DNA of 54,428 bases from an uncultured archaeon (GTDB lineage Archaea; Altiarchaeota; Altiarchaeia; IMC4; QMZM01). The DNA lies in contig CAZJVE010000005.1 in NCBI GenBank assembly GCA_964549685.1, positions 4,579 through 59,006 of the forward strand, read 5' to 3'. Of the stretch, positions 2,472-16,887 are shown in pieces (position 1 is the stretch's first letter; the number at the start of each line of letters is the position of its first letter). Under the pieces are notes generated by a model. That model searched no databases, was not told the DNA's origin, and saw only the letters and a list, made by a program, of their open reading frames with translations. A program made the position numbers and the translations under genes.

Positions 2472-2734
2472 ACAAAGAAGAATTGATAAAGGTCTGGGAG
2501 AATTTTGCAAAGGATAATGACTTTATGCTGAATTCTGACAGCAGTCATGTTGATGGAGTCGCTGATGGAGTTCTCGATAACGAGAAGAACCAGGGGTTGA
2601 AGCTCTGTCCCTGCAGGATTGGCGATGGTACGAGGGAAAGAAATCTCGAGCTTCTTTGTCCCTGTAACTTCAAGACTCATGAAACCTGGAGCAAGGAAGG
2701 CAGATGCTGGTGCGGTCTGTTTGTAAAAAGATAA
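2468..2734 (+). CDS. Ferredoxin-thioredoxin reductase catalytic-subunit-like protein
   Basis: CPC...CPC...CWC triad and C-terminal GLF. Confidence 0.85.
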   Translation: MNKEELIKVWENFAKDNDFMLNSDSSHVDGVADGVLDNEKNQGLKLCPCRIGDGTRERNLELLCPCNFKTHETWSKEGRCWCGLFVKR

Positions 2735-2737
2735 TTA

Positions 2738-2799
2738 TGGCAATCAGTTCGCCCATCAATCATCATGTATCAGCGGTTGTTCGTTTCATCACATTGCCA
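2738..2799 (-). ncRNA. C/D box methylation-guide sRNA
   Basis: Minus strand: TGGCAA-T-GTGATGA(C)-AACGAACAACCG-CTGA(D')-TAC-ATGATGA(C')-TTGATGGGCGAA-CTGA(D)-TTGCCA; all four boxes consensus, two 12-nt guides, 6-bp terminal stem. Confidence 0.92.
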
Positions 2800-2833
2800 C
2801 TATCTATTTTGGATTAGATTCTAATATTTCATC

Positions 2834-4378
2834 ATGGTACACTGGACCGACCTCGTTACGGAGAAACTGCTGCAGAGAGGTAAGGAGCATGTCATAGAGA
2901 CAGGTACCTCAATATCGGGAATCCCCCATGTCGGAAATGCCTCGGATGTGATTAGGGGCGACGCTGTGAGAAAGGTCCTTGAGGAGGAGAAGGCGAAGGT
3001 GGGATTCATCTGGGTTGCTGACGATTGCGACCCCTTCAGGAAGGTGCCCAAGGGGATGGAGTCGCTGAAGGAGTACCTGGGTCATCCCGTCAAGGACATC
3101 CCGGACCCGGACGGTTGTCATGGTGGCTTTGTGGAACACCACGTTACACAGTTCCTGGGGGATTTGAAGGAGTTCGGAGTGGAGCCGAAGGTATATTCTG
3201 CGACTGAGCTCTATAGGAAAGGGGAATTTTATGAGGGCATTAAGACTGCAATGAGTAATTCCGAAAAAATCATTGAAATCTTAAATAAATTTAGAAAGGA
3301 ACCCCTTCCCAAGGATACAATTCTCTGGAGCCCGGTCTGCGAGAAGTGCGGGAATATCTCCACCACCAAAGCCGTCGGGATTGACGACGATTCTGTCAGG
3401 TATAAGTGCGAGGACACGGAGATTTCCGGCGGAAAGGTGAAGGGCTGCGGTTTTGAGGGCGATAGCAGCCTCAAGAAAGGGCACGGGAAGCTACCCTGGA
3501 GGGTTGAGTGGGCTGTGAGGTGGGCGCACTTCAAGGTGACCTGCGAGCCATTGGGGAAGGAGCACGCCTCGGCAGGGGGGTCGTTCTGGAGCGCCAAGGA
3601 GGTCTGCAAGGAGGTCTTTGGGTGGGAGCCACCGATTCCGGTCATCTATGAATTCTTCACCCTGAACGGGGAGAAGATTTCCTCGTCGAAGGGTAACGTC
3701 ATAACGCTGGGCGACTGGCTCAAAATCTGCGAGCCCGAGGCCCTGAAGTTCTTCATGTACAAGAGGCTGCAGAAGCAAAGGGACATAAACCTTGCCAGGA
3801 TTCCGGCCACGGTGGATGAGTATGACAATGCCGAGAGGATTTATTTCGGGCAGGATAAGGGCGAGGATATTGAAACAAGGATGTACTGGCTTTCCCAGGT
3901 CTCCAAGCCGAGGTTTCTTGGGGTTCCGTTTACGCTCTGTGCTGTTCTTGCCCAGGTCGTTCCTGACCTGGATATGAAGGAAATATCGAAGAGGCTGGAG
4001 AATTCCGGCTATGAGAAATTCGATATGAAGAGATTGGAATTAAGACTAAACCTGGCAAGGGAATGGAACAAAAGCCATGGACCGGAGTATCTGAATTTCA
4101 AGCTAATAGACGGGAAGGAGGCAGCAAAGGCAAAGCTGGATAATAAACAGAAAGAAGGACTCAAAATTATCGCCGGGGAATTGGATAAAAAATTTACACC
4201 CAAAGAACTACATAAAAGAATCTACGAGATTGCGAGGGAGATTGAACTGGAGCCGGAGAAGCTCTTTGAGGCCATCTATCTCGTCTTGATAGGTAAGGTG
4301 AAGGGTCCCAAGGCCGCTATGTTCCTTCTCAGTCTTGAGAAGGATTTTGTAAAGGGAAGACTGGCTTTTAACGAATAA
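2834..4378 (+). CDS. lysS: Lysyl-tRNA synthetase, class I
   Basis: HW.D N-terminus, SG.PHVGN, GKL.WRVEW..RW, KISSSKGN. Confidence 0.95.
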   Translation: MVHWTDLVTEKLLQRGKEHVIETGTSISGIPHVGNASDVIRGDAVRKVLEEEKAKVGFIWVADDCDPFRKVPKGMESLKEYLGHPVKDIPDPDGCHGGFVEHHVTQFLGDLKEFGVEPKVYSATELYRKGEFYEGIKTAMSNSEKIIEILNKFRKEPLPKDTILWSPVCEKCGNISTTKAVGIDDDSVRYKCEDTEISGGKVKGCGFEGDSSLKKGHGKLPWRVEWAVRWAHFKVTCEPLGKEHASAGGSFWSAKEVCKEVFGWEPPIPVIYEFFTLNGEKISSSKGNVITLGDWLKICEPEALKFFMYKRLQKQRDINLARIPATVDEYDNAERIYFGQDKGEDIETRMYWLSQVSKPRFLGVPFTLCAVLAQVVPDLDMKEISKRLENSGYEKFDMKRLELRLNLAREWNKSHGPEYLNFKLIDGKEAAKAKLDNKQKEGLKIIAGELDKKFTPKELHKRIYEIAREIELEPEKLFEAIYLVLIGKVKGPKAAMFLLSLEKDFVKGRLAFNE

Positions 4379-4395
4379 TCCTATATAATTAAAAA

Positions 4396-5124
4396 ATGTT
4401 CAAAGCGCTTATTTCAGACACCAAGGCGTGGAAGAGTTCTATAGAGGCCATTGCGTCTTTGATAGACGAGGGTACGCTGCAGATAGCAAAGACCGGTCTG
4501 AAGCTCAGGGCCATGGACCCGTCGCAGATAGCTCTCGTGGATTTTAAGATGCCGGAGTCCTCATTTGAGAAGTACGAGGTTGAGAAGGAAACCAGCATAG
4601 ACATAGACTTTGCCGAGCTCTCGAAGATTACCAAAAGAGCAAGGGCCGAGGACAAGATAGAGCTTTCCCTTGACAAGAAGTTCACCATGAACTTTGTTGG
4701 AGAAACGAAGAGGCGGTTCAATCTGGGGATAATAGAATCAACGACCCAGGCGCCGAAGGAGCCGTCAATTGAATTTACTGCTGAGATCAAGATTGGAGCC
4801 AGTGTACTGAAGGAGGCCCTCAAGGATTCTGAGCTAGTTAGTAATCATATATCAATTTCTGCTGATGAGGGTTTCACTATCAAGGCTGAGGGAGATACCG
4901 GTTCTGTTGACATAGAAATTCCGAAGGAGAGTATAATGGGCATAGATGTCAAGGAGAAGGCAAGGGCAGTCTTTTCTCTCGACCAGCTGGACAGTCTCCT
5001 GAGGGCAGCAGACCAGGGGAGTATCATTATGCTCAAACTGAGGAGCGACGCCCCCTTAAAGCTTGAATATGCGATTGGTGAGGGCAGAGTTGTCTATTAT
5101 CTAGCTCCGAGAATAGAATCATAG
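4396..5124 (+). CDS. pcn: DNA sliding clamp PCNA
   Basis: LRAMDPSQIALVD and C-terminal YYLAPRIE. Confidence 0.97.
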   Translation: MFKALISDTKAWKSSIEAIASLIDEGTLQIAKTGLKLRAMDPSQIALVDFKMPESSFEKYEVEKETSIDIDFAELSKITKRARAEDKIELSLDKKFTMNFVGETKRRFNLGIIESTTQAPKEPSIEFTAEIKIGASVLKEALKDSELVSNHISISADEGFTIKAEGDTGSVDIEIPKESIMGIDVKEKARAVFSLDQLDSLLRAADQGSIIMLKLRSDAPLKLEYAIGEGRVVYYLAPRIES

Positions 5125-10759: not shown

Positions 10760-10788
10760 GATTTAGTATTTAAATATACTTAGATGTA

Positions 10789-10796
10789 TGTTTTCA
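10789..10796 (+). repeat. Left 8-bp target-site duplication TGTTTTCA
   Basis: Identical to 16880-16887; abuts the left TIR. Confidence 0.9.
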
Positions 10797-10846
10797 GGCA
10801 CTGTTGCGTTATCGTGGGAAAAAAGAGGGTGTTGCGGGGCGGGGGA
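10797..10846 (+). repeat. Left terminal inverted repeat (imperfect, about 50 bp)
   Basis: 34/50 ungapped identity by hand count to the reverse complement of 16830-16879; GTTGC occurs at offsets 7 and 35 in both ends. Confidence 0.85.
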
Positions 10847-10857
10847 TAAGCCCCTTT

Positions 10858-11253
10858 TTAAAATTTCGACATTATCTTGTCCCTGCACTTAATCGGGTTT
10901 TTGAAAACCTCGTGCTCCCACAGCCGTATAACTGTCCAGCCACCCTTTTTAAGCTCTCCCGTATGCTTTTTATCCCTCTTGACATTCCTTTGTATCTTTG
11001 GGCCCCAATACTCTTTGTTAGACTTCGGCATCCTGCAATGTTTCGGGCATCCGTGCCAAAAGCACCCGTCTATGAATATTGCCATTTTTCTCTTTTTATT
11101 AGCAAAATCAGGATTTCCCTTAATGTTTTTTGGATGATAGTTAAAAATTCTGCCATCAAGAATGCGTTTCATAATTAATTCTGGTTTGGTTCTCTCACTT
11201 CTTACTTTAGACATTATATCGCTTCTTTTTTCTTTAGAAAAGACATCCGCCAT
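10858..11253 (-). CDS. vsr: Very short patch repair endonuclease
   Basis: MADVFSKEKRSDIMSKV, TKPE, G.PD, FIDGCFWHGC, W..KI.RN..RD, GW.V.R.WE. Confidence 0.95.
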   Translation of the reverse strand: MADVFSKEKRSDIMSKVRSERTKPELIMKRILDGRIFNYHPKNIKGNPDFANKKRKMAIFIDGCFWHGCPKHCRMPKSNKEYWGPKIQRNVKRDKKHTGELKKGGWTVIRLWEHEVFKNPIKCRDKIMSKF

Positions 11254-11299
11254 CGTATCTTTAATATATATTTTATATGTGTCTTTTGAATTATATTAC

Positions 11300-12472
11300 A
11301 TGAGGTGGAGATGGGACCAAGGACGGCTTGAATATTTTAGATTTGACAATATTCGCAGAATTGCGTGTTCTTTACATGAACTAGATGGCGCGACTCTTAA
11401 AGGGGGCGACTCATTGCGTTCCCCAATGGAAGACCAAACAGGTTTGGCTTTTCTCCCCTCTAGCTATTCCGTTTGGAGGAATTATGGGAGAACGTTTCAA
11501 TGCGCCCTTCTTGCAACTAAAATTGGCAATATTCTAAGAACGACAGATATTTGTAAAAGATTAGCAGACGATGGAGATAATGCACTAGGTTCCGATGAAT
11601 ATTTTACTATTATTATGCGTCAGTTCTATCTCCCTTTTCCTGCATTCACTGATTATCAAACTTCAGGCTCTCAAGTATTTCCATTCTGTGCCGTTATGCG
11701 ATTCCTTCTCTCTAAGGCAGTGGCAAACCAAGAACCACGGGTAAGTTTAGATGAGATTTTTTCATTTGTAGTTGGAAACGAGTGCAAAGGTAATGAACCC
11801 ATCAGCTTTTATTCAGGACTCCATCCGACAGGTCACACCGCCACTGGGGATGAGAGAAGGCAAGTGAGGGAAATGCTAATAGCTATTAGTCAATTCAGTT
11901 ATTTGGACTGGGTTAATAACAATTTAGAATTAGATGTTGCTACTGAAGAGAAACAAACGATAACGCTATTAGAAAGCCAATTCATGCCGTCAATACACGA
12001 AAGATTGCCACATCGAGGGGAAGAAATTCTTCACTTGGGAACCCTCACAGAACATCCAGACATTACGCTCCCTCAAAGGGAAACGGCTGCAGATATTGTT
12101 TTCACTGAAGGTAAGCGAGTTCGGATGACCCATTTAAGAATTGAACGCAATCGAAAGATTAGAAAAGAATTTTTTGAAAGAATGGAGCCGCCTTTTAGGT
12201 GTGATGTGTGTGGGATATTGGTGAACGAGCGTTATCCGTGGGTTGATAATCTTCTTCAAGTCCATCACATTTTGCCCCTCTCTTCGCCAATCTATATAGG
12301 GGGCGATGGAACATCCTTTTCAGATATTGTTGCACTTTGTCCTAATTGCCACGGTGCCATACATAGGTATTATCGAAGTTGGTTATCATCACATAATCAA
12401 GTGGACTTTTTAGGTAATGAAGAAGCCCACCAAGTTTATGAAGGCGCTAAGCGAGAATATGCTCCTGATTAG
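11300..12472 (+). CDS. HNH endonuclease, putative restriction enzyme
   Basis: C-terminal F.EG.....H...ERN, CDVCG, VHHILPL, LCPNCH..IH (McrA-like HNH); start placed at ATG 11300 to avoid overlap with vsr. Confidence 0.8.
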   Translation: MRWRWDQGRLEYFRFDNIRRIACSLHELDGATLKGGDSLRSPMEDQTGLAFLPSSYSVWRNYGRTFQCALLATKIGNILRTTDICKRLADDGDNALGSDEYFTIIMRQFYLPFPAFTDYQTSGSQVFPFCAVMRFLLSKAVANQEPRVSLDEIFSFVVGNECKGNEPISFYSGLHPTGHTATGDERRQVREMLIAISQFSYLDWVNNNLELDVATEEKQTITLLESQFMPSIHERLPHRGEEILHLGTLTEHPDITLPQRETAADIVFTEGKRVRMTHLRIERNRKIRKEFFERMEPPFRCDVCGILVNERYPWVDNLLQVHHILPLSSPIYIGGDGTSFSDIVALCPNCHGAIHRYYRSWLSSHNQVDFLGNEEAHQVYEGAKREYAPD

Positions 12473-13656
12473 CTCACTTCAAAGATTTGTTGCGCTATTG
12501 ATGTGGCTAGGTGATATGCAAGAACAGGTGGGACAGCATTGCCTACTTGAGTGAACTGCCGTGCAATAGGGCCGTAAAATACAAAAGAGTCAGGGAAAGT
12601 TTGTAGCCTTGCACATTCCCTCACTGACAGAGTTCTAGGTATTGTTGGATGAAGATGGGAGCGTCCACCGCCCTGACACCCGCCGGCTATGACTGTCAAA
12701 GATGGGCGGTTAGCTTCAAGCCTGTTCACTCGCCCATGTTTATCTCGTTCACCACACTTCAACATAATGTATCGTTTAATTGATTTCGCAGTATGTTTTC
12801 TCGTAATGTGGTTTTTAATATCTTTTTTTGGTAAATTAAGGGCATTAGAACAAGGTATTTTTTTATCGTTAGCATCTGGAAATTTAAATAAACCTTTCCG
12901 AGAGCCAACGATAAATAATCTTTTCCGATATTGTGGAACGCCATAATCAACAGCATCAATAATATGTGGCTTAGTAACTGAGTAATCAGCTTTCGAAAGA
13001 GTAGATAATACCTTATTGAGCTGTTCTCCACCATCAATGGAAGCCAGCCCAGTTACATTTTCAATTAAAAAGGCTTGGGGTTTAAACCTTTTGATGTACC
13101 AAACATAGTCAGATAAGAGATTGCCGTTAGTTTCATGGGCAAATCCCACTCTTTTAAAATTACTATCCCCCTTCTGAAATCTCTGATTTGATGCGACACT
13201 AAATGGTTGGCATGGTGGCCCCCCTATGAACATTCCTTCAAATGGAGTAGTAATATGCTTATTCAATTTATTGAAAATTTTTTTTCTGTCAGATATGTCT
13301 CCATCTTCGTTTGGTGGGCCTATGACATTCCATTTAGGACGATTGATACGTAAAGTATTGCAAAATAGCTCATTATTATCGATGCATGCCAAGTGTTCAA
13401 ATCCTGCTGATTCAAAACCAAGGTCTAATCCGCCACAACCAGAAAAGAAACTTATGATTGGTGTGTTTGGAGGTAAAACAGAAAGATTATCAACGCTTTT
13501 ATACTTCTCTCCTGTGCCGTTTATTTGGCACTTGTGCTCATATACAAGGTCGTTGTAAGAATGCCCCGCATTGGTCAATGTCTCATGAAGTGGTTTATTA
13601 TTTTGAATGCATTGATTAATTATTTCGGTTTGTTCATCCCAGTCAAGAATTGGCAT
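12469..13656 (-). CDS. DNA (cytosine-5) methyltransferase
   Basis: FFSGCGG, GGPPCQ.FS, ENV, Q.R.R, R.LS.RE.ARLQ.FP, Q.GNAVP. Confidence 0.95.
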   Translation of the reverse strand: MPILDWDEQTEIINQCIQNNKPLHETLTNAGHSYNDLVYEHKCQINGTGEKYKSVDNLSVLPPNTPIISFFSGCGGLDLGFESAGFEHLACIDNNELFCNTLRINRPKWNVIGPPNEDGDISDRKKIFNKLNKHITTPFEGMFIGGPPCQPFSVASNQRFQKGDSNFKRVGFAHETNGNLLSDYVWYIKRFKPQAFLIENVTGLASIDGGEQLNKVLSTLSKADYSVTKPHIIDAVDYGVPQYRKRLFIVGSRKGLFKFPDANDKKIPCSNALNLPKKDIKNHITRKHTAKSIKRYIMLKCGERDKHGRVNRLEANRPSLTVIAGGCQGGGRSHLHPTIPRTLSVRECARLQTFPDSFVFYGPIARQFTQVGNAVPPVLAYHLATSIAQQIFEVS

Positions 13657-13721
13657 TTTGTATTTTCAATATAATTTTATGGCGTTCTTATTATTTAGTG
13701 AGAGAGCATCGGAAAAGTAAA

Positions 13722-13880
13722 CTATCTTGTTTTGCTGTTTTTATTCTGTCTAGGCTTATCCCAGTAAGGACTCTTACACTTCGGGCATACTCTTGGAGCA
13801 TCGTCATTTCTCGGCACCCATTCGTGTTCGCATCGCTCACAGCGATAGCCCATCGCCGTAATCTTAACCTTTTTAACCAT
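13722..13880 (-). CDS. Small Zn-ribbon protein (52 aa; not in ORF track)
   Basis: MVKKVKITAMGYRCERCEHEWVPRNDDAPRVCPKCKSPYWDKPRQNKNSKTR*; two CxxC pairs; TATA-like box upstream. Confidence 0.8.
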   Translation of the reverse strand: MVKKVKITAMGYRCERCEHEWVPRNDDAPRVCPKCKSPYWDKPRQNKNSKTR

Positions 13881-13888
13881 TTATTTGT

Positions 13889-14013
13889 TAGTAATATAGT
13901 ATTTAGTATATAAATACATAGTATATGCTCTAATAGATATGTTCTTCTGCTGACGTAAATTAAACGAAATATACACCGAGTTTGTATTTATATACCTTAA
14001 TACTAATATACTA
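13889..14013. promoter_or_regulatory. Mirror-image divergent promoters of the Zn-ribbon gene and transposase
   Basis: Perfect 12-bp inverted repeat GTATATAAATAC(13906-13917)/GTATTTATATAC(13984-13995) containing TTTATATA; each copy is followed by AATACTA...ACTA. Confidence 0.6.
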
Positions 14014-14042
14014 CATAGGTATATAGTAAGGAGGTAAATAAA

Positions 14043-15218
14043 ATGGAGTTAACAGACAGGCAGGTAAGGGGTATGGCAATCATCGCCAAGGGCGACATGC
14101 CGAAGCAGATAGACGGTAGAACCTTCAGGGTTCCCTCGCAGAACGGAGGCGGGAGCTACAAGGTCTGGACCGAGACGGACATCTACTACGCCGACGGAAA
14201 GAGGCAGGAGGTAGAGGTCTGGAAGTGCGAGTGCCCCGATTTTCAATATCATGGCTCTAAGGAATGGGAGGACTGCAAACACATCTCAGCGATAAAGTTC
14301 TGGCAGGACTTGAAGAAGAACCACGCCCCTGAGATGGTTGCCGAGATAGTGAATCCTGAGCCGATGGAGAACGTCCTTGAATGCGCCTACTGCGGAAGCA
14401 GGGATTTAAGGAAAGATGGACACAGAAAGACACGCTTCGGGAAGAAGCAGAGAATGGAGTGCAAATCATGTGATAGAAAATTCACGATAGATGCGGAGTT
14501 TGGCAAACTAAGCACAAATCCAGAGGTCATAAGCGTAGTTCTTGACCTATATTTCAAGGGCATCAGTTTGCGAAAGATTCAAGACCACTTAAAGCAGTTC
14601 TACAAGATGGAAGTTGACCACTCGACAGTATATCGCTGGATAAGGAGATACACCGAGCAGATACATAAATTCACGCAGGGGCTTACGCCAGAGACAGGTA
14701 AGGTATGGCACTCAGATGAGATGAAGATTAAGGTCGGCGATAAATGGAAGTGGCAGTGGAACCTAATGGATAGGGATTCACGATTCCTTCTGGCAACACA
14801 GGTTACAGATGCCAGGTATGTCGGCGATGCCGAGACATTGCTTATTGAGGGTAAGGAGAAGGCCAAGAAGAAGCCAGAGTTCCTTATGACCGATGGCCTG
14901 CACTCATACATCAAGGCGTCCAAGAAGCATCTGAGGGGTAATGGGTTCACTCACATAAGATGCCCCACACTAAGAAGCAAGTCGAATAACAACGTGGTGG
15001 AGAGATACAACAACACGATGAGGGAGCGGGACAAAACCCTGCGGGGATACAAGAAGAACGAGACAGCCGATGCATTGATTCAGGGGTTCGCCGACTACTA
15101 CAATTTCGTAAGGGAGCATCAAAAGTTAGGCACTACGCCTGCGGAGAAGGCGGGGATAAACCTTAATCTTGGAGAGAATAGGTGGCTTGACTTGCTACGA
15201 ATGAGTGTAAGTGATTAA
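14043..15218 (+). CDS. IS6-family DDE transposase with N-terminal SWIM finger and Zn ribbon
   Basis: CECPDF...CKHI (SWIM); CAYC...CKSC; SLRKI..H...HST.YRW (HTH); WHSDE, MTDG, NNVVERYN (DDE); GGAGGT RBS. Confidence 0.88.
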   Translation: MELTDRQVRGMAIIAKGDMPKQIDGRTFRVPSQNGGGSYKVWTETDIYYADGKRQEVEVWKCECPDFQYHGSKEWEDCKHISAIKFWQDLKKNHAPEMVAEIVNPEPMENVLECAYCGSRDLRKDGHRKTRFGKKQRMECKSCDRKFTIDAEFGKLSTNPEVISVVLDLYFKGISLRKIQDHLKQFYKMEVDHSTVYRWIRRYTEQIHKFTQGLTPETGKVWHSDEMKIKVGDKWKWQWNLMDRDSRFLLATQVTDARYVGDAETLLIEGKEKAKKKPEFLMTDGLHSYIKASKKHLRGNGFTHIRCPTLRSKSNNNVVERYNNTMRERDKTLRGYKKNETADALIQGFADYYNFVREHQKLGTTPAEKAGINLNLGENRWLDLLRMSVSD

Positions 15219-15748
15219 CGCCGTTCTTTAATACGCTCCATTGCATCTAATAGTGCCTTGAAAAGGTCAAAACACCTATACGCTCTTAAAAAACCAAAAC
15301 TTAGTGCAGTTATTGATATATAGAGGTAAATCAGTTTAACATTCGTGTTTTCAATCAAGGAAATTTTAAAGAAATATAATGCCCCTAGGAGTATGATAAC
15401 CCCAAATATCCCAAATATAGAATCCGTAAATCTTTTGTAAAGTTCTATATGTTTTTTATGAGCCATCAATATTTTGAATGCCTCATTTTTCTTTAGTGTT
15501 GATTCAAAAGCATGTAATATCGCCAGTATCGTTAGGAGAGCACCAAGAATCGTGGTTAATATCACTATAAATAGATTTAAATCTGAAGCCTCCAGACAAT
15601 AATATGTAAGGTTCTTCATTAATTCAAAATCAGTTACTTTCAAAAGCCCCAATGAAAAGTAGATTAAGCAGATGGATATAAGTAAGGCCAAGGATATACT
15701 ACAAGACAATAACACATCTCCCCTTAAAGATTTGGTTGGATTAATCAT
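15215..15748 (-). CDS. Hypothetical membrane protein (about 4 TM), transposon cargo
   Basis: Four hydrophobic stretches; start coupled to the upstream gene's stop (exact start uncertain, 15748 or 15769). Confidence 0.7.
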   Translation of the reverse strand: MINPTKSLRGDVLLSCSISLALLISICLIYFSLGLLKVTDFELMKNLTYYCLEASDLNLFIVILTTILGALLTILAILHAFESTLKKNEAFKILMAHKKHIELYKRFTDSIFGIFGVIILLGALYFFKISLIENTNVKLIYLYISITALSFGFLRAYRCFDLFKALLDAMERIKERR

Positions 15749-16772
15749 CCTCTCCATTGACTTTATCAATCAAATATCTACACGCCTTTTTTGGGGATAC
15801 CTCAAAATCATCTATCTCATTTTTATCTAATTGAATAGATTCGCTCTCAAAGCTTCTTAATAAGTTTTCTTCATCAGAAACCGATGCGTTTTCATCAATC
15901 CAATAGTCAAATTTAAAGGAACTCATAATGCTGGCAAAATCTATCTGTAGTAGTTCCTCCACATTGTCTACGGCAAACTCTTTAAGCAATAAGTCCTTCA
16001 CTTTCATAAAACTGCCACGTTTAGATTTACCTAAACTGAATTCTATATTGACAGAATAATCTTCAGTAACTCCTAATTTACCTAAAAATTCTTCGACTGG
16101 GGAATCGGAGCTGAGGTCTGCGTTCTTTTTGAATGTCATAACTATTCTCTTTAACTTCTTTCCAAAAACTTTTTTTAATTGTTCCTTCTTCTTCTCCTTG
16201 ACTTTATGTTTATGGATAAAGGTTATATCATCTTGGTTTATTATCTGTCTCATATAATCAATGAACACGCCGATGCCTGGATATTGGAATCCTTGCTCCA
16301 TCAATACAAGTATCTTCCCATCCATTATAGTGAAGGCAAAACTGACAATATCTCTTTTTATCTCTCCCGTTTCACCATTATCTCCTGTTTTTGAGGATAG
16401 ATTAACTATTTCGTCTGTTCTCCCATCCAGATGACAGTATTCAGTATCTTGTTGTGTTCGGACAATATAACTATAGAAAAAATCACGAGTTGGTTCGTCT
16501 TCTTCATCATTATCCTCATCCTCACTTTCATATTTCCCTATTTTTAGTTTATATGCTCTACCGCTTTGTTTACGCTTTACTCTTATGTCCGAATCAAAAT
16601 CATATTCTCCATCACTGCCTTTAAGTATATCCTCTAAATTTTTTTGTATGGACTCGGAATCAGTAGCAATTACCTCATAATAAAAGAAGTTATATCCTGC
16701 CATATAAAAAAGATTGTCTTCATCACTTAAAAGTGTTATTTTTATGCGTAATTCGTCCATCTCTTCATCCAT
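15741..16772 (-). CDS. Hypothetical acidic soluble protein, transposon cargo
   Basis: 343-aa ORF with GGAGGTGA RBS; no motif recognised. Confidence 0.75.
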   Translation of the reverse strand: MDEEMDELRIKITLLSDEDNLFYMAGYNFFYYEVIATDSESIQKNLEDILKGSDGEYDFDSDIRVKRKQSGRAYKLKIGKYESEDEDNDEEDEPTRDFFYSYIVRTQQDTEYCHLDGRTDEIVNLSSKTGDNGETGEIKRDIVSFAFTIMDGKILVLMEQGFQYPGIGVFIDYMRQIINQDDITFIHKHKVKEKKKEQLKKVFGKKLKRIVMTFKKNADLSSDSPVEEFLGKLGVTEDYSVNIEFSLGKSKRGSFMKVKDLLLKEFAVDNVEELLQIDFASIMSSFKFDYWIDENASVSDEENLLRSFESESIQLDKNEIDDFEVSPKKACRYLIDKVNGEDD

Positions 16773-16829
16773 TTACATCACCTCCGTCTTCCAATAATTT
16801 GAAAAAAGAAGGTGATTGAGGCAACCCCT

Positions 16830-16879
16830 TCCCCCGCTCTGCAACTTGATTTCCGTTCCCCCGATTTTGCAACGGTGTC
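16830..16879 (-). repeat. Right terminal inverted repeat
   Basis: Reverse complement GACACCGTTGCAAAATCGGGGGAA...GTTGCAGAGCGGGGGA. Confidence 0.85.
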
Positions 16880-16887
16880 TGTTTTCA
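16880..16887 (+). repeat. Right 8-bp target-site duplication TGTTTTCA
   Basis: Identical to 10789-10796. Confidence 0.9.

Follow-up and report, generated by a model that had tools for sequence, protein, structure and literature searches.

IS6/IS26 elements are textbook insertion sequences (IS) that move other genes only in pairs, via cointegrates. What, then, is a segment of archaeal DNA in which one transposase gene of this family lies with six other genes between a single pair of inverted ends? The segment occupies positions 10797-16879 of a 54,428-nt stretch from an uncultured archaeon (the window, to which all coordinates refer), and we consider it very probable that it is a unit transposon, or large transporter IS (tIS), of 6,083 bp, built on an IS6-family DDE transposase with an extra SWIM and zinc-ribbon N-terminus. 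The assembly containing the window (1.17 Mb, 27 contigs) is called G000, related genomes are labelled G001, G002 and so on, and extracted homologous loci carry L-numbers. The borders of the segment are formed by four features.

10789..10796, no strand: left target-site duplication, TGTTTTCA, identical to 16880-16887 and about 44 nt upstream of the trpE start codon (10745)
10797..10849, plus strand: left terminal inverted repeat, about 53 bp, bipartite; begins GGCACTGTTGCGTT, with the IS6 tip GGCACTGTTGC, a G-rich box, a second GTTGC and CGGGGGA
16827..16879, minus strand: right terminal inverted repeat, about 53 bp, on the same bipartite plan; minus-strand tip GACACCGTTGC
16880..16887, no strand: right target-site duplication, TGTTTTCA, established by direct reading and by script

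Direct reading and a script both reproduced the 8-bp duplication, the end coordinates and the ungapped identity of 34/50 between the ends that the original prediction, made from the letters of the window, had put forward. Compared inverted and without gaps, the left and right ends are identical at 9/14, 20/30, 34/50 and 34/53 positions; the right end reads GACACCGTTGCAAA in reverse complement, and the forward strand runs ...TTTGCAACGGTGTC up to 16879 and then into TGTTTTCA. Both ends are built from a tip, GTTGC, a G-rich box, a second GTTGC about 28 nt further on and CGGGGGA, and this bipartite plan is also present in G001, in G006, at both ends of a related element in G034 and at two ends in L104. 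The right end is identical to the trpE-proximal end of the G034 element at 37/53 positions. Going by their sequence, the two GTTGC/G-rich boxes of each end are putative transposase-binding sites. The target in G000 is palindromic, consisting of ATGTA, the 8-mer and TACAT.

Repeats of this kind could be fortuitous, in which case the locus would be an ordinary restriction-modification island that happens to contain an unrelated transposase gene. The first 14 bases of the two ends agree at only 9, and AT-rich intergenic DNA often gives short repeats, of which the window holds many weak pairs. Nevertheless, an exact 8/8 repeat just outside two IS6-type tips is expected about once in 65,000 for fixed positions, and the tips have no counterpart elsewhere in the genome: across the 1.17-Mb assembly, an 18-nt pattern of the ends, searched with a tolerance of two mismatches, matched the two ends and nothing else (reversed control, 0), and the exact matches to a degenerate 11-mer tip in the 54-kb window were the two ends only. 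With one mismatch, the 11-mer matched five times in the window against 1.43 expected (at least five in 0/100 shuffles); the sole such match inside the element, at 12348, lies within an HNH gene, and beyond it the tip scan found no other end-like sequence inside the element. When no motif was assumed and identical outer 8-mers were combined with inverted similarity, the TGTTTTCA pair ranked best in the window. The same bipartite ends, moreover, accompany 58%-identical transposases in G034 and L104. With the controls of the family scan given below added to these observations, a chance resemblance is scarcely credible. We also considered the right flank (16888 onward) as a decayed old end; its matches were near random, and this candidate was dropped.

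The segment contains seven ORFs, the central one of which encodes the transposase.

14043..15218, plus strand: IS6-family DDE transposase, 391 aa (NF033587, PF13610)

Between the gene and the tips are 3,246 bp on the left and 1,661 bp on the right, in agreement with the predicted layout of one transposase about 3.2 kb and 1.7 kb from the tips and six other genes. The enzyme had been described as IS6-like, and this assignment holds: alongside IS6-type ends and an 8-bp duplication, the protein passes the NCBI curated IS6 model NF033587 (138 bits, cut-off 125) and matches PF13610 (57 bits against 27). Two zinc motifs, a CxC...CxH of SWIM type and a CxxC...CxxC ribbon, mark its N-terminus; like the candidate catalytic residues D225, D284 and E320, they do not vary among 31 aligned homologues. 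Residues 161-382 are 35% identical to a 340-aa IS6 transposase of the ISCpe7 family, to the N-terminus of which the zinc ribbon aligns, and the catalytic core is about 25% identical to IS26 transposases (Tnp26). In a large protein set, 248 relatives were retrieved at E <= 0.001, mostly of about 380 aa and with the same domains, the nearest being 74% identical. No second full copy of the transposase was found in the G000 genome. One further weak match (24% identity) is located on contig C21 of G000. Separately, a 30-residue relic of the transposase C-terminus, 70% identical, was seen at G000:C16:13439-13528 on the minus strand, with no end-like sequence nearby; this relic is the trace of a second, lost transposase copy.

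The same architecture recurs around related transposases. A one-genome-per-species scan yielded 430 confirmed homologous places, the best 80 of which (75 archaeal, 5 bacterial) were taken with up to 10 kb per side and searched for an identical 8-mer outside and at least 18/30 inverted identity inside, flanking the transposase, with no end motif assumed. At 35/80 loci the top pair had IS6-type tips on both arms and exact 8-bp duplications; controls with the right arm reversed, the right arm direct or the flanks shuffled gave 0/80 each, which is the further point against chance resemblance mentioned above. IS6-tipped pairs were found in 22/34 loci having at least 4 kb on both sides. The scan missed 45 loci, of which 22 have IS6-tipped pairs but no exact duplication (about 11 of these were convincing in a relaxed search, with 20-24/30 identity and lengths of 3.4-6 kb), and most of the remainder are simply short of flanking sequence. 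A slightly wider tip rule gave 36 loci, which together with the window element make up the 37 elements of all later analyses. The 36 related elements measure 2,442-7,215 bp (median 4,180), the transposase starting 792-5,284 bp from one tip and ending 60-3,678 bp from the other, and the consensus of their 72 ends is GGTTCTGtTga. A second tip hexamer, counted in 68/74 ends, is given no weight here, the count being uncontrolled. A scan of homologues for such ends, 8-bp duplications and variable cargo had been proposed with the original prediction, which thus gains 35 positive loci, with cargo that varies among them. The prediction had also named terminal repeats tight around homologous transposases as a finding that would speak against it. 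When ends were sought within 500 bp of the transposase, such a compact IS was found at 0/78 testable loci; the list, read by eye, held background pairs only (16-20 of 24), none with IS6 tips or matching flanks. Because no ends lie tight around the transposase and 35/80 loci contain long elements, the cargo-carrying layout is the rule for this clade, and the element belongs to a large, mainly archaeal clade of IS6-type cargo carriers. A metagenome scan with a single transposase protein found no closer relatives, and one with a five-sequence alignment gave 6 loci, of which just L104 (58% identical) was useful. Viral contigs contained 22 transposase loci, mostly distant or truncated.

These results also bear on the possibility that the segment is what remains of an IS26-style pseudo-compound transposon, in which the cargo lay between two direct IS copies and one copy was lost, leaving an orphan end. 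Just one transposase remains here, and such compounds are the classical means of cargo movement in the IS6 family (Varani et al. 2021, PMC7986276, in the part available to us). However, the ends are inverted, outermost and flanked by a direct 8-bp duplication, and each IS would need its own pair of ends, whereas the match at 12348 in the HNH gene is the only internal candidate. With no homologue having ends tight around its transposase and the single-transposase layout repeated at 35 independent loci, we regard such a remnant as highly improbable.

If the segment is a unit transposon, the DNA between its ends is cargo, and this is where the elements of the clade differ. The transposase is the sole gene common to all 37 elements, and at least 36 elements, from many phyla, carry between 1 and 8 passenger genes each. 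We took a census of 95 cargo ORFs of at least 120 aa in the related elements. Seven encode N6/N4 methylases, one sampled member of which has an HTH domain, and another seven encode fused type IIG/I-like enzymes, which are about 900 aa long and include an N6 methylase domain, accompanied in a sampled member by specificity and nuclease-N-terminal domains; a DNA methylase of the N6/N4 or fused type is present in 14/36 elements. Single matches were obtained to MvaI/BcnI, MjaI and Mrr nucleases, PIN, Panacea, M78 peptidase, DUF3800, AAA_14 with DUF4143, and ParB_N. We looked for a universal accessory gene and found none: homologues of a 52-aa zinc-ribbon protein recur beside the transposase, in the same position and orientation, in only 5/37 elements, window included.

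Related pairs of elements show how the cargo changes. In L027/L031 (from one genome), L028/L097 and L079/L086, 50-80 bp of each end and the transposase are 77-85% identical in nucleotide sequence, and the genes between are unrelated. L090 and L098 have a common 3.65-kb left module at different sites, and their right sides differ. The combination of shared ends of 50-80 bp with unrelated cargo indicates that the functional end is long and that cargo is exchanged on both sides of the transposase. Within the clade, then, the ends and the transposase are conserved and the flanking genes are freely exchanged. Separately, three cargo proteins resemble proteasome subunits (PF00227, best 1.9e-12; L026:2231-3109, L049:205-1116 and one more). 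The two smallest elements (2.4 and 2.9 kb) have such proteins as their principal cargo, an unexpected payload for a transposon.

The window element has its own set of six genes beside the transposase.

10858..11253, minus strand: Vsr very-short-patch repair endonuclease, 131 aa, cargo (PF03852, 1.8e-22; TIGR00632, 126.5 bits against a cut-off of 97.85; PADLOC Vsr)
11162..12472, plus strand: HNH-domain protein, 436 aa as listed, candidate restriction endonuclease, cargo (PF01844, 7.2e-8, residues 347-401)
12469..13656, minus strand: C5 cytosine DNA methyltransferase (Dcm), 395 aa, cargo (PF00145, 2.1e-59; TIGR00675, 183 bits against 100.65; PADLOC type II methyltransferase, 7e-79)
13722..13880, minus strand: small CxxC...CxxC zinc-ribbon protein, 52 aa, divergent from the transposase gene (sub-threshold zinc-ribbon matches)
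15215..15769, minus strand: 184-aa protein of unknown function with hydrophobic stretches, cargo (no Pfam, NCBIfam or PADLOC match)
15741..16772, minus strand: 343-aa protein of unknown function, cargo (no Pfam or PADLOC match)

The Vsr protein, the candidate HNH nuclease and the C5 methylase look like a type II-like restriction-modification set, in which the role of the nuclease is suggested by its HNH domain and by gene adjacency: the HNH and methylase genes lie tail-to-tail with a 4-bp overlap. The HNH protein also has a weak match to a PADLOC type IV restriction endonuclease (1.8e-5), and its atlas neighbours, which serve as a lead only, are clusters of HNH endonucleases with a very high score. 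Its true start is probably further downstream, because the ORF as listed overlaps vsr. The prediction that the element delivers defence-like cargo stands for the restriction-modification set, part of the cargo presumably acting in defence, and the related elements are rich in such systems; for the 184-aa and 343-aa genes there is no supported defence role. The 343-aa protein had DUF6731/DUF4747 atlas neighbours with a recognition score of 1805, below the 2300 mark, and this weak lead was taken no further. Pfam and NCBIfam scans detected no resolvase encoded in the element. The host is a marine archaeon, and its genome (G000) encodes archaeal RNA polymerase A' and B, topoisomerase VI B, an archaeal-type LysRS and Fae-Hps. 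The G+C content is 0.33-0.43 across the cargo versus 0.46-0.52 in the flanks, and the shifts coincide with both ends, which favours the unit transposon. In the zinc-ribbon/transposase promoter region, a stretch of about 36 nt (window 13957-13994) is unique in G000 and occurs at 10 places in G001 and one in G002, with 81-92% identity.

Several observations weigh against the segment being a transposon that inserted as a whole. The right tip is GA, not GG, and the two ends are just 68% alike across 50 bp. The element is single-copy in the G000 genome, and no near-identical copies at different sites were seen among the related elements; movement of the whole unit would thus follow from the duplications and was not observed directly. 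The original prediction had pointed to the empty site, in related genomes or reads, as the place to look, and here it was not borne out: a search with an 8.8-kb region revealed no clean empty site or precise excision-like junction among 41 related genomes, and no contig joined across the element was found in four low-depth runs, which says nothing about absence. The window stretch is present, whole or in part, in 13 public runs; in favour of the transposon, contigs from other samples span the junctions with the element in place (left, X5 record 1; right, X7 record 24). The left end is not private to G000 either, with ends or decayed ends also in G001, G002, G006, G015 and G034, and since G001 holds it at the same spot, the insertion predates at least the split of G000 and G001, or the site was re-used, and the cargo may have changed. 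The predicted insertion in one piece is therefore carried by the duplication and the family pattern, given that there is no clean empty site and that G001 keeps the left end without the interior. As regards novelty, IS6-type unit transposons with cargo are undescribed in the full-text literature searched (a scope that excludes ISfinder, TnCentral, supplements and subscription journals), in line with the original prediction, which did not know the architecture as a described family.

What happened at this site can be followed in part through the genomes that share it. In the sister genome G001 the flanks are 88% identical to the window, the 8-mer has one change and the left end is identical at 50/53 positions. 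Similarity then ends exactly at 10849 and, after about 80 unrelated bases, resumes 22 bp right of the right-hand duplication. For these two genomes, the most economical history is an insertion in their common ancestor and a later deletion in G001. In G002 (78% identical), the end is decayed and precedes a gene that, by its sequence, encodes an AAA_14-like ATPase. Both G001 and G002 have contig breaks and rearranged DNA at the locus, and in G004 trpE is directly followed by an ACT-like gene and pgk.

We aligned the region upstream of trpE in ten more genomes. In all five genomes named above, the end or decayed end lies 8 nt past the same TATA-like motif and ATGTA(C), and a possible end occupies the same position in G003, G004, G009 and G016. 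Across 49 genomes of the order, the end pattern matched 9 times, 5 of them at the trpE locus; the other 4 lack G-rich boxes, so that well-kept bipartite ends occur at the trpE locus only. G034, which belongs to another family of the order, has a degenerate element of about 2 kb directly upstream of trpE (L021, G034:C9, about 2624-4594), with both bipartite ends, a truncated transposase (residues 223-389, 58% identical), an orientation opposite to that of the window element and no clean duplication (5/8). An inversion through recombination between the ends was considered for the G034 orientation and set aside, resting as it does on two or three base positions. Independently of these comparisons, the spacing between the TATA-like box with ATGTA(C) and the transposon end was seen to be constant in different genera (window 10770-10800 against L009, L011, L013, L015, L021 and L023).

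Ends at one position across an order raise the possibility of an ancient, fixed integration hot spot upstream of trpE. The end would then predate the genus and perhaps the family, the 6.1 kb would have been assembled in place by end-targeted insertions, deletions and recombination, and the transposase may no longer move the element. The distribution of the ends just described, the degenerate G034 element in the opposite orientation and the single copy of the element in its genome are all in keeping with such a history, as are the general swapping of cargo with breakpoints at the inner edge of the ends and the AAA_14-like ATPase behind the decayed end of G002, AAA_14 being a cargo family in L030. 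In contrast, the 8-bp repeat of G000 is perfect (8/8), and most of its positions are different in the corresponding 8-mers from other genera; copies of family age should have drifted, and a single insertion of that age therefore fits poorly. The transposase is also intact with all its conserved residues, and the low G+C content of the cargo has not drifted towards the host value. On balance we find such an assembly in place unlikely, and as it would still need the same transposon machinery, it would change the history of the element and not its nature.

Two further observations concern the DNA around this site. In G001, an apparent IS200/IS605-type insertion stands before the gene that follows the element in G000 (L016, G001:C110, 2147-2462; L017, G001:C59, about 3560-3736); this identification is based on hairpin-rich ends seen by eye, and the insertion splits the locus over two contigs. 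In addition, an 11-nt core, GTAGTGCCTAA, usually within TGTAGTGCCTAACT, is present in 38 copies in the 1.17-Mb G000 (C1:161494-161585 and C1:165721-165799 among the places noted). The copies occupy either strand and both genic and intergenic positions, and some follow one another in tandem every 25-35 nt. Its 16-nt form, with at most one mismatch, has 14, 34 and 23 copies in G000, G001 and G003, respectively (reversed control, 0-1). Copies of the repeat also adjoin the trpE-site relics of G001, G003 and G004, and the transposase gene contains in its 3' portion (window 15122-15137, minus strand) a variant of the 16-nt form with two mismatches (10/11 core bases).

The surroundings of the 37 elements gave an indication of how such sites might be chosen. 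At 12/74 element ends, belonging to 11/37 elements, a further IS6-type end lies exactly 8 bp outside, tip to tip, and in L058 this is the case on both sides. In these elements the duplicated 8-mer thus sits between two tips. When all spacings from 0 to 40 bp were searched with a threshold of at least 12/16, 10 ends qualified, every one of them at a spacing of 8. L104, the 58% relative, has the same 8-bp outside end, identical to the left end of the window at 41/53 positions. No partner was found for any of the five outside ends searched for one (L058, L080, L092, L097 and L104), and they therefore look like orphans. For the window element itself, no third end was found outside it.

The exact tip-to-tip spacing of 8 bp suggests that insertion is directed to the border of an end already in place. 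It is possible, and we offer this tentatively, that the clade homes to its own ends, a new copy entering so as to abut a resident or orphan tip at 8 bp and an old end serving as a self-renewing landing pad for new cargo. Homing of this kind would explain the 12/74 tip-to-tip ends, with that of L104, as well as the presence upstream of trpE, across the order, of ends in both orientations and at various stages of decay. An orphan end at that position may by now be part of the trp promoter region.

For the unit transposon that we favour, a chemistry can be proposed. The transposase would bind two sites, GTTGC and a G-rich box, in each end of about 53 bp, cut at the G tips and join both ends to target DNA whose two strands were cut 8 bp apart. 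With both ends joined, the intervening DNA would move as one piece and leave an 8-bp duplication, through either a cointegrate route, as in IS26, or simple insertion. We infer that the element may be active today.

How does this compare with known members of the family? IS6 elements are described as having ends of 15-20 bp with a G-dinucleotide tip and a cTGTt motif, and transposases mostly of 220-250 aa (Varani et al. 2021, PMC7986276; this and the following statements from that source refer to the part available to us). The window element agrees with the family in transposase type, in end tips and cTGTt motif and in the 8-bp duplication. With 6,083 bp, 7 ORFs and end similarity over about 53 bp, it departs from the usual picture of a compact IS of about 0.7-1.8 kb with a single gene and 15-20-bp ends. 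It has what defines a transporter IS or unit transposon, namely one inverted pair of ends enclosing a transposase and passengers, with a target duplication. A pseudo-compound transposon would have two directly repeated IS copies, and here a single transposase gene was found, both within the element and genome-wide.

Like IS26 and the other classical members IS257 and IS6100, the element has a DDE transposase, a GG/GA tip, a CTGTT-type motif and an 8-bp duplication, and the first 11 bases of its left end equal those of IS26. The IS26 terminal repeat had been quoted correctly in the original prediction: an annotated IS26 copy of 820 bp has GGCACTGTTGCAAA at both ends, with the transposase gene 63 and 52 bp from them. 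Unlike IS26, with its 820 bp and 14-bp ends, the element has 6,083 bp, six passenger genes and bipartite ends of about 53 bp, and its transposase, about 25% identical to Tnp26 in the core, has about 160 extra N-terminal residues. IS26 uses two IS copies, in pseudo-compound transposons and translocatable units, whereas the element has one transposase and one pair of ends.

Closer in sequence are the IS6 clades h and i, represented by ISCpe7 of Clostridium, with 35% identity in the core and an aligned zinc ribbon. The Clostridial clade is characterised by an N-terminal zinc finger and transposases of 340-350 aa, and a three-member clade with a further extension has transposases of 450 aa (PMC7986276); the zinc finger plus further N-terminal extension of clade i matches the layout of the element's transposase. 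Lengths of 1,230-1,460 and 1,710-1,760 bp are given for clades h and i and worded as transposase-gene lengths (PMC7986276), although for transposases of 340-350 and 450 aa they are better understood as lengths of the entire IS. The ISCpe7 copy that we inspected occupies at most 1.28 kb between neighbouring genes, with no room for cargo. The clade of the window element is set apart from clades h and i by a SWIM-like extra domain, by mainly archaeal hosts and by cargo as the rule. A parallel in layout, which we could compare by description only, is ISDsp3 of Dehalococcoides, the sole IS6-family tIS listed (PMC7986276). It too has a passenger gene between IS6-family ends; however, it is a single copy with one hypothetical passenger, as against 1-8 passengers in at least 36 elements from many phyla. 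For archaea, a 2019 survey of thaumarchaeal mobile elements states, in the part available to us, that passenger-carrying DNA transposons were undetected (Krupovic et al., PMC6563490), and the available part of a 2026 paper on archaeal immunity (PMC12988326) gives no description of IS6-type unit transposons with cargo.

Bacterial unit transposons with defence cargo, of the Tn3 family and the Tn7-like kind, resemble the element in having one pair of ends, an internal transposase, variable cargo rich in defence genes and target duplications. Tn7-like elements with defence cargo in bacteria were reportedly the subject of work by Benler et al. in 2021. The element differs from both kinds in the unrelated family of its transposase, in having no resolvase or target-selector gene, in its much smaller size and in its archaeal hosts.

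By its enzyme, ends and duplication, the element is thus a genuine IS6-family transposon. It belongs to a large branch whose members have varying cargo, frequently restriction-modification genes, enclosed by one pair of long ends. If it does move in one piece, the IS6 enzyme family supports a second way of moving genes. Archaea also gain a class of small passenger-carrying transposons, with many of the passenger genes being of restriction-modification and toxin-antitoxin-like types. The exact 8-bp spacing beside resident ends offers a testable hint that such elements choose targets by their own ends. In practical terms, the ends and 8-bp duplications of this branch make it possible to mark out cargo sets precisely, by the hundred, in archaea that have not been cultured, and they thereby open a route to archaeal defence genes, including unknowns such as the 184-aa and 343-aa proteins.

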